Shown piece by piece: positions 5,499-10,414 of a stretch of DNA of 39,162 nt. The DNA is from a virus (lineage: Duplodnaviria; Heunggongvirae; Uroviricota; Caudoviricetes). The DNA is taken from IMG/VR virus record IMGVR_UViG_2541047691_000016; one strand, written 5' to 3'. The notes under the pieces were generated by a model. It searched no databases and was not told where the DNA came from. It worked only from the letters and a program-made list of their open reading frames with translations. The translations under genes were made by a program, and so were the position numbers. The stretch's first letter is position 1. Each line of letters begins with the position of its first letter.

Positions 5499-5577
5499 GT
5501 TGGTTTTTCTCCACGGATTTACCGACAACCGAAGCCCTGACTGTTCCAGCAGTTGGGGCTTCACTGTTTTGATTTCT
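5499..5577 (+). ncRNA. Candidate sar-like antisense RNA complementary to the ant ribosome-binding region
   Basis: Extended -10 (TGcTATACT, 5484-5492) on the plus strand inside the ant 5' end; GAAGCCC/GGGCTTC hairpin (5531-5562) followed by a U-rich tract; arrangement matches P22 sar. Confidence 0.4.
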
Positions 5578-5883: not shown

Positions 5884-5997
5884 GTTACCCTCCACGCAAA
5901 CAACTCTTTTCGAATACAAAAGATAGCAAAGTGAGTATATCTAGTCAAAATTTTTTTGCATACACTTTGCTATCAAATTGAATACCAAAGGTGTTAT
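5884..5997. promoter_or_regulatory. Divergent Pant/Pmnt control region with candidate Arc/Mnt operators
   Basis: Lies between divergent arc and mnt; perfect 11-bp inverted repeat ATAGCAAAGTG (5923-5933) / CACTTTGCTAT (5963-5973), each embedded in AGATA...TATCT-like symmetry. Confidence 0.5.
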
Positions 5998-6246
5998 ATG
6001 GCAAAGGGTGTGTCAATTTCTCCAACTACGGTAAGAATCCCTGAATCTTTACGCGAGGCTCTTGCTGTCAGAGCATCAAAAAATGGTCGCTCTGTTAACT
6101 CCGAGATCGTCATGATTTTGCAAGCCGCGATTGATGAAGATAGGTCGCCAAAGTCAGTTGAGTCATTTGCTCAGCAAGAAGCTGATAAATTCAAAGAGGC
6201 GCTACTTGAGACGCTAAAGACCATGTATGCTAAGGATGAAAAATAA
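5998..6246 (+). CDS. mnt: Mnt-like ribbon-helix-helix repressor (82 aa)
   Basis: MAKGVSISPTTVRIPESLREALAVRASKNGRSVNSEIV... with a C-terminus like P22 Mnt; the ORF-track start at 5956 is an upstream extension. Confidence 0.75.
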   Translation: MAKGVSISPTTVRIPESLREALAVRASKNGRSVNSEIVMILQAAIDEDRSPKSVESFAQQEADKFKEALLETLKTMYAKDEK

Positions 6247-6782
6247 TGCTGCACACAATTCATTTCTTATGCCCTGTTAACACTGCCACTGTTGGGCAAC
6301 TTCAGAACCACTGTCTCACCGCATTATCTCAAGGCGCAACTGAATTAAATATCCATATATCAAGTCAGGGAGGGGAAACTGCTGCTGGCTTTACTGCGTA
6401 TAACTTTCTTAAGTCACTCCCTGTTACCGTTAGAACTCACAACATAAGCAATGTTGAATCCATAGCTAATATCGTTTTCCTGGCTGGCTCAGAACGTTTC
6501 GCAAACCCATTATCAAGATTCCTGTTACATCCTCTATTATGGTGCTTTGCCTCCCCAGCCGCCGACCATGCCAGATTGAGAGAGTACGGGAAATGCCTCG
6601 ATAACGATCTTGATCGCTTCGTTGAGACGTTCAATATCGACATCGGAACCCATATTAGGTGGGCATCCCTGATAGCAGACTCGACCATTTTGGATGCTAA
6701 CAAGGCTCTTGAGCATGGCATAATTAATTCCATAAAAACTGCAAGGCTGGCATCCAATCAGGCAAACTGGTGGGTTGTTTGA
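6246..6782 (+). CDS. Truncated ClpP-family (S14) serine peptidase-like protein, 178 aa, translationally coupled to mnt
   Basis: ISSQGGETAAGFTAYNF...SNVESIANIVFLAGSERFANPLSRFLLHP aligns with the ClpP core (INSPGG..AG..IYD..GQAASMG..LLTAGAKGKRF..NSRVMIHQP), with Ser, His and a candidate Asp in register; about 40 N-terminal ClpP residues are absent; start overlaps the mnt stop (TAATG). Confidence 0.65.
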   Translation: MLHTIHFLCPVNTATVGQLQNHCLTALSQGATELNIHISSQGGETAAGFTAYNFLKSLPVTVRTHNISNVESIANIVFLAGSERFANPLSRFLLHPLLWCFASPAADHARLREYGKCLDNDLDRFVETFNIDIGTHIRWASLIADSTILDANKALEHGIINSIKTARLASNQANWWVV

Positions 6783-6807: not shown

Positions 6808-6834
6808 AAAAAACCCACCTGACGGTGGGTTTAG
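6808..6834. terminator. Bidirectional intrinsic terminator between convergent genes
   Basis: AAACCCACC-TGAC-GGTGGGTTT hairpin with A/T runs on both sides; overlaps the stop codon of the 149-aa gene. Confidence 0.65.
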
Positions 6835-7280
6835 TCAAACATAGTGTTTCTAAAGTCTCTCGCATACCCTGCTAACACTCTCATTCTATTATGATTGTTA
6901 GCAGACATGTGAGCTACAGGATGAAAAAGAGCAATCAATGAATACCTGTTCTCATCAAAAAGATTTTGTGCATAAACGAGAGCGGTATTGGATGTTTTAT
7001 GCCACTGCAACTTTTGCGGTGTGCTGATATCTGTGCCATTTTTTATTGGCTCAAATTTATTTTCACCAATTGCTAAATGAAGGTGCATAAGGCCTGCATC
7101 TTCAATATCAGGAGGTCGATGATAAGAGGTGTCTCTGCCAAAATAGCTGGGCAACGTTCCCGTAGACTTGTAGATGATAAAATCATCTACAAGTGTTTGT
7201 TTTAAATCAGGAAACTCAACAAAAACCGGGGAGAAAAAATAGTCAAAACTATCCTGATTATATTCCACGGTTACTTGCAT
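6831..7280 (-). CDS. Hypothetical protein, 149 aa (distal gene of the AT-rich immI two-gene operon)
   Basis: ORF with GAGG RBS 8 nt after the upstream stop; AT-rich; no family recognised. Confidence 0.6.
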   Translation of the reverse strand: MQVTVEYNQDSFDYFFSPVFVEFPDLKQTLVDDFIIYKSTGTLPSYFGRDTSYHRPPDIEDAGLMHLHLAIGENKFEPIKNGTDISTPQKLQWHKTSNTALVYAQNLFDENRYSLIALFHPVAHMSANNHNRMRVLAGYARDFRNTMFD

Positions 7281-7288
7281 GTTTTACC

Positions 7289-7855
7289 TCAGTGGAAGTT
7301 ACCAGAGTGAAACACACGAGTCCCGTGCTCAGCAAGCGCACGCAAACCAGCCATATCTACGGAACTATCAAAAACAACCGGAACACATGAGCGTTGTTTA
7401 ATAAGACTATTCAGGTTGGTTACGGCAGATCTGGCATCAGCAACAACGATATAGATATCTCTTGCGATCTCTTTAAAATCAGCAGAAGCTTCTTTGAATA
7501 CCGATTTCATTGCCCCTTCAAGTCCTCTCAATTGATGCTCTATCAATCGAGACTTTTCTGGTTCAATGATAGACAACACATTGTCTACATTCTCATCGGT
7601 AGCGTTTGCAAGAACACGATAAGCGTATTTCAGCATTCGAGACAATTCTTTAATCGAAGACACCGCCTCATGAAGCTCATCATTAGCCCGTTCACTGCTG
7701 AATGAGGATTGATGGTAAGCGTGCTGAACGTTATCAGTAACAACCACCTCACAACTGAACGCAGAAGCTTGCTGTAATAGCAAACCTATTGCGACTCCAG
7801 CTTTGGCAGCGTTCAAGCTAAACATTTCATCAATCCCATTAGTCTCATTGCTCAT
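7289..7855 (-). CDS. Hypothetical protein, 188 aa (proximal gene of the immI two-gene operon)
   Basis: ATG at 7855 preceded by AAGGAGG with a 5-nt spacer; the ORF-track start at 7885 is an extension; no family recognised. Confidence 0.6.
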   Translation of the reverse strand: MSNETNGIDEMFSLNAAKAGVAIGLLLQQASAFSCEVVVTDNVQHAYHQSSFSSERANDELHEAVSSIKELSRMLKYAYRVLANATDENVDNVLSIIEPEKSRLIEHQLRGLEGAMKSVFKEASADFKEIARDIYIVVADARSAVTNLNSLIKQRSCVPVVFDSSVDMAGLRALAEHGTRVFHSGNFH

Positions 7856-8030
7856 ACAAACCTCCTTCTTATCGGAGATTATCAATAGCTATGCATCCAT
7901 TGAATACACGCTATGCGCAATAAGTTTACGTCACGTGATATCATTATGCAACCACCGTTCTATCACCGACTAACTTTACTCCCACTCCTATACATCATCT
8001 GGTATCCTGCGCAAAACTAAGGAGGTTGGT

Positions 8031-8381
8031 GTGAATGCTCAGTCTGTCATCATGGTTTTCCTTGGGCTGATTGTCGCAAAACTATATCCAGACTGGTGGA
8101 AAGGGGCATTAGCTACTGTCGCCATCTATTTGCTTTTATCCATCGTTAAGCGATCACTCGCTGAGACCGTAAATCAAGCAAAACGTTTCTCATTTAAGAG
8201 TTTAATAAACTATGTTACTGGGCTTATTTTTTGCCTTTCAATTCTGATCGCTTCGGCTTTTTTGCCCGTATCAATAGCTAATTTTTTTGGCGCACCATAT
8301 GAGGTAGGTTATCTATTCTCTGTTTCCTGTCTTGCCATTGCTCTTCTTTACCTGTGGACGAGATCAAAGAATAAAAATTAG
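8031..8381 (+). CDS. Small multi-pass membrane protein (116 aa), divergent from the two-gene operon; positional analogue of P22 sieA
   Basis: GTG start with TAAGGAGG RBS (8018-8025); three to four hydrophobic segments; no sequence-level identification. Confidence 0.55.
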   Translation: MNAQSVIMVFLGLIVAKLYPDWWKGALATVAIYLLLSIVKRSLAETVNQAKRFSFKSLINYVTGLIFCLSILIASAFLPVSIANFFGAPYEVGYLFSVSCLAIALLYLWTRSKNKN

Positions 8382-8398: not shown

Positions 8399-10414
8399 TT
8401 ATTGAGCTTCTTTTTGTGATGCCTGTGCGACTCTGGTGAGCGATTGTGTGACCGTACTGATCGCTCTGTCATATGCTGTGCTACCTTTTGGCGTATTTGC
8501 CAGACGTAACAAGGCATTTCGTATAACAGGGCTTTCGTATGCCTTCGCAGCTCCTCCTACGACACCAGCAGCAGGAACAACAAACGCAGCCGTTTTTAGC
8601 ATCCCCGCTAATACTGCTGCGTTTATGATGCCACCACCAACTAACAATCCATAAAGCTGCTGACCATTTAAGTTTTGAACGTTCGCTTTTGCCGCGTGTC
8701 TTGTATCGTTGAGGTATTTAATAACGCCGTCCAGTTCCTTTCCATGTACGCCTTTAAAGAAAGTTGCTGATTGCTTCCTGTTCCGGTGTAACGCATTAAT
8801 AAACTTTTCAACACTAATATTTCCAGACGGATCAGTCGCCTTATCTACAGCATTCTGAACTATGGCTGCTCGTGCGTTTTGCCTACCATTGTCATCCAGA
8901 AGCCTGTAAAGCTGAGAACGTTCTGATGGGTTTTGGCTAAAAACGAGTTTTGTTACATCCTCAGGTGTAGCCTTGCCGCTGGCTATTGCCTTTTGAACGC
9001 GCGTTCTTCCCATCATGTCATTGAATCTAGCCCATGAGCGATCAACCCTAGACATATTGGCAGCTTCTTCTGAGCCTAGTTTTTGGGATACTGCTTTTTT
9101 CATATCCGCTGTATATGCCTTGTAGACAATATCGCTGGCTTTCTGGAGCGTGTCTTTATCAACAGTCTCGTTTGAATTCATGAACCGCTTTCGAAGGTCA
9201 GTTCTGTTTTCTCTCGCCAGACGCAGGTCATTGGGTCCGCTGGTGATATCGTCTTTAAATTGCTGCAAGACTTTTACCGCGGCTCTATCCTGAGATTTGC
9301 CCGGGCGGCTTAACACGGCAATCTGATTGTCGATAGCTTTTACCGTGTTTGAGAGATCGACAGGGGTATCCCCCATAGCGTCAATTATGCGGTTATATCG
9401 CTTTCCTGCTGCCTCAATGAATTTTTGTTGCCCTTTAGTCGCAGATTCATAAAGCTGTTTATCAGAAATGCCACCCAGACCATCGCTAAATGTTCTGACT
9501 AAATTTTCTCGTGCTTGTTGTTGATTCAGCCGATTCTTACCGGTTCCAAAAAAAGGAACTCTTTCGCCTAATGTCTGAGCCTGACTCTGCATAAAGGTTT
9601 TATCTTTCAGCGTGTCACTGGTCATTAACGGCAGGTTTCTTTCCGACGCAAAATCGACAGCAGCCTTTGCTTCCGGTGACATCTCACCGCGAACAGCCCT
9701 GGAAACCGCACTAACTGTATTTTCCAGCCCCTTGCCAACACCACCAATGCCAGCAGAAATTACCGTTTGTGCAGGATCAATATCTTCTCCGCCAGCAAGG
9801 CTGGTGCCACCCTGTAGTGCTAAATCTGTAGCAGCTGATTTCCCTATGGCACCAAGCACCGTTCCAGCCCTGCCCGCTGGTGTGAACGCTAACGCATTAG
9901 CAAGAAACGAAGTCAGGTCTTGCGGTGATAAACCTGGCTTGTTCAGGGCATAATCACCGGATGGCAGGGAAACGATAGTGTTACCCTTCTCATCCTGCCT
10001 TAATTTCGCCCCCATACTCTGAAGAATCTTTTCCTGAGACGCGTCGGAGCCGAAAAGTTGAGACCATCCAGCCTTCAGGGCATCCATGCTTAGTGAGTTC
10101 AACTCAGGGGCAGCCCCAACATTTTGCAGTCTCTCCATTTCTGGTGTCATTCGGCTTTCACCGGTAACGGCATCGCGCATTGCAGCACCTAAAACAGCCC
10201 CTTGCTCAGCAGAGCGATCTAGTCCTTCCTTCTGCTGAGTGGCAAGCTGTGCATATCCTGATGCAAGTGAGTTGTCTGCTGGCGATTGCTGAACACCTTG
10301 TTGTGTTGGCGCTGACTGACCAGCAAAATACTCATCAATGGCGGACCCAATATCTTCCGTGCTCGTACCATCAGGAAAGGTAAATGTCTTACCATTTGCA
10401 GTTACTTTCATCAT
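8399..10414 (-). CDS. Ejection (DNA transfer) protein, P22 gp16-like
   Basis: 671-aa ORF last in the gp7-gp20-gp16 order after the tail needle; Gly/Ala-rich, typical of E-proteins. Confidence 0.8.

Follow-up and report, generated by a model that had tools for sequence, protein, structure and literature searches.

The window analysed here is a DNA stretch of 39,162 nucleotides, IMG/VR virus record IMGVR_UViG_2541047691_000016. It is a complete P22-like (Lederbergvirus-type) prophage, with integration at tRNA-Arg (argW) between yfdC/intS and torI/dsdC, and it is 100% identical to the prophage found in Escherichia coli APEC O1, S88, ATCC 11775 and further strains of extraintestinal pathogenic E. 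coli (ExPEC); the host is E. coli of the sequence type (ST) 95 type. Two genes on the minus strand, named gene A and gene B here, lie between gp16 and an mnt-like gene (Table 1). A sequence-only reading of the window had described them as two coupled genes of 188 and 149 codons, 8 nt apart, with an AAGGAGG ribosome-binding site (RBS) before the first one, and the open reading frames (ORFs) are as it described them. The ATG of gene A lies 5 nt downstream of this RBS. A longer form of gene A that starts at a TTG at 7885 is possible, but it is unsupported by RefSeq and by the family alignment. The 149-aa gene is AT-rich, as had been noticed: its GC content is 0.378 compared to 0.475 for the window, which places it in the lowest 0.5% of 450-bp windows, and that of gene A is 0.432.

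The product of gene B, protein B, matched the Pfam family PF13957 (YafO) with 78.9 bits (gathering cutoff, 25; E = 3.4e-22), with residues 37-145 covering profile positions 3-101 of 101. It scored 79 bits against NCBIfam NF007377, under the equivalog cutoff of 153, and B is therefore a member of the family and not an ortholog-grade equivalent of the YafO of E. coli K-12, with which it shares 38% identity over 120 residues (E = 7e-20). By its sequence, B is a YafO-family toxin, and its RefSeq entry (WP_001198454.1) is already named "type II toxin-antitoxin system YafO family toxin". All of the residues that stay invariant when K-12 YafO is aligned with Pseudomonas and distant phage members are retained in B (D33, F34, Y37, P44, F47, G48, Y53, H66, H68, Y103, E110, H124 and M133); these are candidate catalytic residues only. 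Residues 1-36 of B are outside the Pfam domain, in a region that is conserved in all YafO proteins partnered with A, and the first ~13 residues have no counterpart in K-12 YafO. Few E. coli toxin families are as poorly understood as YafO, for which the copy of the PDB that was searched contains no solved structure. To our knowledge, no physiological role has been established for YafO, and we know of no defence phenotype for any YafO module. Published work presents E. coli YafO as a toxin that cleaves mRNA, with a disputed dependence on the ribosome.

Protein A, the product of gene A, belongs to phrog_8416 (2e-96), which is annotated as "unknown function", and matched no Pfam, NCBIfam or PADLOC family. 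The sequence-only reading had been unable to assign either protein to a family, which stands for A but not for B. A Pfam scan of all 50 members of the A family gave no consistent match and no PhdYeFM match, and searches of the PDB with the sequence and profile of A gave no consistent match to any solved structure. Matches of A to ZorA (a 14-bit coiled-coil match in PADLOC-DB v2.0.0), DUF745 and HEPN_RnaseLS were at noise level and were rejected. The AlphaFold2 (AF2) model of A, built on a 50-sequence alignment, showed a helical bundle only, with a mean predicted local distance difference test (pLDDT) score of 77.8 and a predicted template-modelling (pTM) score of 0.63. In this model, residues 36-53 form a disordered linker and the pLDDT is about 90 across residues 60-160; no structural neighbour was found at E <= 1e-3. 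The C-terminal tail of A, ...HGTxVFxSGxFH, is invariant. The A family is small. In a set of 5.8 billion proteins it has 59 clusters at 90% identity, every one from Enterobacterales; in another of 1.84 billion it has 43 representatives at 50%.

The two genes are inherited together. Complete loci were retrieved in four independent ways, with A, with B, among viral contigs and among species genomes, and all 53 of them have a YafO-like ORF immediately preceded by an A-like one. Remote A homologues (E = 1e-14 to 6e-6) are likewise paired with a YafO gene. The same pairing is seen in the Pseudomonas phage vB_PaeS-D14L (BK061587.1; locus L021, 1507-2459), a P. aeruginosa prophage, in which a YafO-family toxin gene starts 8 nt after a 167-aa distant homologue of A. 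The pairwise distance matrices of A and B are correlated (r = 0.89; Mantel test, 0/2000), with A evolving ~1.27 times faster. Homologues of A are 34-79% identical and those of B 54-89%, with frame and length kept in both, which shows that both are real genes, and both are under clear purifying selection across clades. The junction between the genes is kept as well. The gap in the window is exactly 8 nt, TGAGGTAAAACATG, ahead of the ATG of B; an 8-nt gap is found in most of the 53 loci, and the junction TGAGGTnnnnn[A/T]TG is present even at loci whose proteins are just 34-69% identical.

Table 1. Coordinates of the gene pair, its candidate signals and its neighbours in the window.
Feature	Position	Strand	Description
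Gene A	7855-7289	-	188 aa; all-helical; PHROG 8416; presumed cognate antitoxin
Gene B	6831-7280	-	149 aa; YafO-family toxin; predicted endoribonuclease/mRNA interferase
A-B coupling junction	7281-7291	-	stop codon of A, TGA (7291-7289), overlaps the GAGG Shine-Dalgarno of B (7290-7287)
Intrinsic terminator	6808-6830	-	stem 6830-6824/6819-6813; loop GTCA; T-tail 6812-6808
Candidate cassette promoter	7923-7951	-	TTGCAT (7951-7946), N17, TAAACT (7928-7923)
Leader hairpin	7859-7880	-	AAUCUCC (7880-7874) pairs with the gene A Shine-Dalgarno AAGGAGG (7867-7861)
Inverted repeat within gene B	7166-7194		perfect; 13 bp; 3-nt loop; codons 30-39
gp16	8399-10414	-	
116-aa gene	8031-8381	+	predicted membrane protein
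ClpP-like gene	6246-6782	+	178 aa; ClpP-like serine protease
mnt-like gene	5956-6246	+	Mnt-like ribbon-helix-helix (RHH) protein; stop/start overlap with the ClpP-like gene
sar antisense RNA	5499-5565	+	Rfam RF00262; 83.9 bits

The pair is also mobile. It is found in the immI regions of P22-like phages, between tail genes in siphoviruses and HK639, in the tail region of a myovirus, between the Q antiterminator and holin genes, and beside integrase or repressor genes. Phage phiv205-1 shares the flanking ClpP-like gene and the terminator with the window, both identical, but has two different genes in the slot and no cassette. The homology between the window and phiv205-1 stops at the stop codon of B, and homology with phages that lack the cassette ends at 6832. 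An identical flank with other genes, a homology break at the stop codon of B and the variety of slots are the behaviour of a moron cassette. The low GC content also fits a mobile element. The A-B pair is thus an obligately linked, co-inherited and horizontally mobile two-gene moron, in agreement with the sequence-only reading, which had proposed an autonomous two-gene moron in a variable slot of immI.

Among 5426 complete E. coli genomes, the cassette was found in 55, at 58 places; many of these are avian pathogenic E. coli (APEC) or ExPEC isolates, and an ST95-32 isolate is included. Some genomes (ExPEC XM, PU-1) have 2-3 copies. About 50 genomes share a majority allele that is 100% identical, and the window carries this allele with both ORFs intact. 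Other alleles differ in gene B. In one (viral contig L031, 4001-4451), an additional T in a T-run at 7240 shifts the frame of B, and gene A is intact. The same copy has AAA in place of TTT in the loop of the inverted repeat within gene B (7179-7181), which turns the invariant F34 into K and looks like an inversion of the palindrome. In a second allele (P0019), found on eight contigs, the frame of B is shifted after residue 80. Toxin-dead alleles of this kind, with A intact in L031, support the toxicity of B.

The variant alleles could also be read as signs of decay, in which case the pair in the window would be a degenerating or domesticated remnant whose B has lost its toxicity and whose A serves no purpose. 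Toxin-inactivating alleles do circulate, the copy in E. coli SF-088 (NZ_CP012635.1, 1486500-1487523) is 1 nt shorter, and B falls under the NCBIfam equivalog cutoff. However, the window has the intact majority allele, B has every family-invariant residue, and purifying selection acts on both genes across clades, which makes a remnant a very remote prospect.

The slots in which the cassette is found bear on another explanation, namely that it serves the lytic cycle of the phage. YafO would then be an RNase for host shutoff or mRNA turnover, and A an inhibitor that sets the timing, or a chaperone, with both expressed mainly by read-through from late operons. In many phages the cassette does lie within late operons (among tail genes, or between Q and holin), with the same orientation in the loci that were fetched, and the ejection genes of the window run in its direction too. 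A terminator-like hairpin just 5' of gene A in the non-P22 clade could gate such read-through. Yet the cassette is dispensable, as it is missing from close relatives and present in just 55 of 5426 E. coli genomes; it has its own terminator and promoter-like and operator-like elements; and positions that are early or proximal to the integrase occur too. In the window, the divergent 116-aa gene and the intergenic region also part the cassette from gp16. We consider a lytic function improbable.

The reading that we favour, with a probability of roughly 0.7, is that of a mobile prophage moron whose two genes make up a type II-like toxin-antitoxin pair, in which a known RNase toxin family is joined to a new antitoxin family. 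The layout is that of type II systems: the genes are adjacent and co-oriented, the partner is upstream, the junction is short and co-occurrence is strict. An order with the partner first and the toxin second (A/T) has been reported for PF_YafO in the literature, and it is the same here. Gene order, translational coupling, obligate linkage with co-inheritance and the faster evolution of the upstream gene together point to A as the neutralising partner. We infer the RNase activity of B, its neutralisation by A, the instability of A and the biological role of the pair. By homology with E. coli YafO, B would be an endoribonuclease that cuts mRNA and halts translation. A would be translated first from the shared mRNA, with translation of B coupled to it, and most likely binds and neutralises B as a family specific to this YafO subclade, taking the place that is held in the chromosomal yafNO operon by the unrelated Phd/YefM-type YafN. 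In the lysogen, the cassette would be expressed from its own weak promoter, with transcription ending at its own terminator. If A ran short, because an infecting phage shuts off transcription, the prophage is lost or A is degraded by proteolysis, free YafO would arrest translation. The outcome would be abortive infection and exclusion of competing phages, or addiction to the prophage.

From its context, the biological role is probably abortive-infection defence or prophage addiction. Within the toxin-antitoxin reading, defence seems likelier than addiction but is far from established, and an anti-phage or exclusion function of the cassette is pure conjecture.

Several points weigh against this toxin-antitoxin reading. 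No DNA-binding family (RHH, helix-turn-helix (HTH), AbrB or Phd) was found in any of the 50 A members, and the model is that of a helical bundle. At 188 aa, A is ~2x the size of a typical type II antitoxin and is larger than its toxin, and the isoelectric points (pI) of A and B do not follow the pattern of an acidic antitoxin and a basic toxin. The candidate promoter is weak, with 7 of 12 positions in agreement with the consensus. The AF2 model of B, built on a 15-sequence alignment, had a pLDDT of 52.5, which was too poor for a fold search and left the BECR fold unconfirmed, and it is residue conservation alone that suggests B to be an active toxin. The searchable literature, queried by accession and by terms, yielded nothing on the partner protein of the A family. 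Lastly, neither A nor B matched a defence model in PADLOC-DB v2.0.0, so the locus was not recognised there as a defence system.

The size of A and its lack of a recognisable DNA-binding domain suggest that A may do more than neutralise B, or something else. One such possibility is that A is a sensor or switch, which would hold YafO inactive and release or activate the toxin on binding a specific protein of an invading phage, so that the pair would be a dedicated abortive-infection system. The concept resembles CapRel-SJ46, whose antitoxin domain senses a capsid protein. A is large and well folded (pLDDT about 90, residues 60-160) and is without a DNA-binding domain, and it diverges faster than B, as expected of a component in an arms race. 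Further, the cassette is found only in moron slots and hotspots of temperate phages, and in the window it adjoins the sieA exclusion slot. This support is not direct, with no PADLOC match for either protein. The faster evolution of the antitoxin is also usual in ordinary toxin-antitoxin pairs, and the variable part of A includes the disordered linker at residues 36-53, which is prone to drift. We regard the sensor model as unlikely, though it is the strongest competitor of the toxin-antitoxin reading. A wider form of this proposal is that A founds a new antitoxin or sensor fold and that the cassette is a phage-carried abortive-infection system, in which A would silence a YafO RNase until it senses a competing phage and, in part of the family, a leader attenuator and a Shine-Dalgarno-sequestering hairpin would gate expression. 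This wider form seems to us similarly doubtful; if it were true, conflict between phages would be the first biological role known for the YafO family.

The cassette was compared with known systems. It shares with K-12 yafN-yafO, in the dinB-yafNOP operon, a toxin of the same Pfam family and a partner that is upstream across a short gap (2 nt in K-12 and 8 nt here). In contrast, YafN is a protein of 97 aa of the Phd/YefM type, and A is an unrelated all-helical protein; alignment of the A-family profile with YafN by hhalign gave a probability of 0.35%, so there is no relation. The contexts differ as well, since K-12 yafNO is in the SOS-regulated dinB operon and the cassette is in a prophage moron. 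The gp17-gp18 genes of phage HK639 (PHROG 8416 and PHROG 1651) are the same cassette: gp17, annotated as a "hypothetical protein", is 38% identical to A, and a YafO-family toxin gene follows 8 nt on. The HK639 leader shares the CUCC...GGAG motif with the window. The slot is different, between the tape-measure/lipoprotein genes and minor tail genes, and HK639 belongs to the other clade, which has a palindromic promoter and a terminator-like leader hairpin that the window lacks. P22 SieA has a shared neighbourhood with the pair (gene 16 to the mnt operon, immI), but neither A nor B resembles it.

The pairing of one toxin fold with unrelated antitoxins has been termed "mix and match" in a study that found YafO toxins beside Phd or unclassified "guilt-by-association" antitoxins and located none of them on a phage or plasmid (Leplae et al. 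2011). The pair described here fits this theme, with a known toxin domain and a non-homologous presumed partner on a mobile element. Unlike that YafO set, the A-partnered YafO proteins form a distinct subclade that appears to be exclusively phage-borne and is always coupled to a previously unnamed family of helical partners. RnlAB/LsoAB, CapRel-SJ46 and PanA-type antitoxins are examples of prophage-borne toxin-antitoxin or abortive-infection modules, and the cassette resembles these in the same way, except that A matches none of their antitoxin families in Pfam or PADLOC. In a 2023 survey of E. coli, 13 partner clusters were listed for YafO toxins, of which 8% were known, and a cluster named "YafO_toxin 70H" was almost confined to ST95, where it was present in 22 of 50 isolates with 1-3 copies. 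We infer that this cluster is gene B, which fits the distribution of the cassette among the complete E. coli genomes.

The sequence-only reading had singled out the pair as the best candidate for an undescribed two-component system. This was overstated, as the layout is that of a type II toxin-antitoxin system, the toxin family is known and surveys already list YafO clusters and their partners. What is new is a family-specific helical partner of YafO that has spread among temperate phages; the system is of a familiar kind. Changes of antitoxin are well known for toxins, so a known toxin with an unrelated antitoxin will not surprise specialists. The cassette moves among the moron hotspots of P22-like, lambdoid, HK639-like and P2-like phages, including Pseudomonas prophages. 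Papers on Pseudomonas prophages, one on the vB_PaeS-D14L prophage among them, list such YafO genes as lone toxins, and the upstream partner corrects these reports of orphan "toxins alone". At ~1.2 kb, the unit is a compact test case for a new antitoxin fold and for prophage defence or addiction in ExPEC ST95 lineages.

The signals around the pair were examined next to its coding regions. A terminator hairpin, ACCCACC-GTCA-GGTGGGT followed by T5, begins at the first base past the stop codon of B (-14.9 kcal/mol, z = -3.2), and the identical sequence is annotated as "terminator" in Salmonella phage Emek. A simple terminator scan of the window did not list this hairpin. It had been called bidirectional; the strong hairpin does end the cassette on the minus strand, but termination in the other direction is doubtful because only TTT follows the stem on the plus strand. 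The pair had also been credited with a promoter region of its own at 7856-8030, which the analysis did not confirm. This is a shared, divergent intergenic region that also bears the sieA-type leader of the 116-aa gene, and a consensus promoter scan of it found no minus-strand promoter and did not report the weak block at 7951-7923. That block may be the cassette promoter, since the form TTGCAn-N17-TAnACT is kept in five P22-like loci; its spacer contains the palindromes TGATATCA and TCACGTGA.

The leader hairpin of gene A has a 7-bp stem with a minimum free energy (MFE) of -12.6 kcal/mol (z = -2.3). CUCC lies 8-11 nt 5' of the gene A GGAG in 17 of 17 distinct leaders, with a variable loop sequence. 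The core pairs are invariant, so covariation is uninformative for this hairpin, and sequestration of the gene A Shine-Dalgarno by it is suggestive only.

The leaders of the non-P22 clade are organised differently and have three elements (loci L009, 3196-3422; L020, which is HK639, 2720-2964; and L011, L012, L013, L033, L034, L048, L052 and L055). All three lie in order within the ~230 nt 5' of gene A. The first is a promoter-like TTGCTC...TGgTATTAA with the perfect palindrome TTGCTCA-AAAA-TGAGCAA. The second is an ACAAC/GTTGT hairpin. The third is a GC-rich hairpin with CTTTTTG behind it, just ~35 nt 5' of the ATG of gene A, with compensatory changes in its stem (GCCGAAG/CTTCGGC, GCCGGAG/CTCCGGC, CCAAAAC/GTTTTGG and GTTGAAG/CTTCAAC). 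This GC-rich hairpin could be a leader attenuator or give rise to a short leader RNA. The window leader has neither the terminator-like hairpin nor the palindromic promoter.

The inverted repeat within gene B was rejected as a functional element. It is perfect in this lineage only, is largely explained by the VDD/IIY codons and lacks conservation in other clades.

The sar antisense RNA, the regulator of ant in P22, was the sole above-threshold Rfam family in the window, and its position confirms that the region is immI. The mnt-like gene, which is one border of the pair, runs into a gene for a ClpP-like serine protease (Pfam CLP_protease, 2e-11; "head maturation protease"-like) that is in the immunity region and not in a head module. 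The terminator 3' of B also closes this mnt/ClpP-like operon. Phage phiv205-1 also has this protease gene, which other P22-like loci lack. The ClpP-like gene was considered as a part of the system and rejected, since it is missing at other cassette loci and is present without the cassette in phiv205-1.

The gene order in P22 is 16, sieA (antiparallel), a gap, the mnt terminator, orf59a, mnt, arc and ant. In the window, the antiparallel neighbour of gp16 is the 116-aa gene, and the A-B cassette is flanked by this gene and the terminator. It is thus the 116-aa gene that fills the sieA slot proper, and the pair, which had been placed where P22 has sieA, adjoins the replacement of sieA and is not its substitute. 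The 116-aa product has no family match and no similarity to SieA (E = 0.29), and its gene retains the sieA-type leader and RBS, ACACCAACCTCCTTAGTTTTG (minus strand). Related prophages have unrelated genes of 107-297 aa in the sieA slot, with the same leader; the one in locus L008 is Rap1a-like (a type VI secretion system (T6SS) immunity family). For this reason the 116-aa gene was rejected as a third component of the cassette. The sieA slot itself looks like a hotspot for cargo genes.

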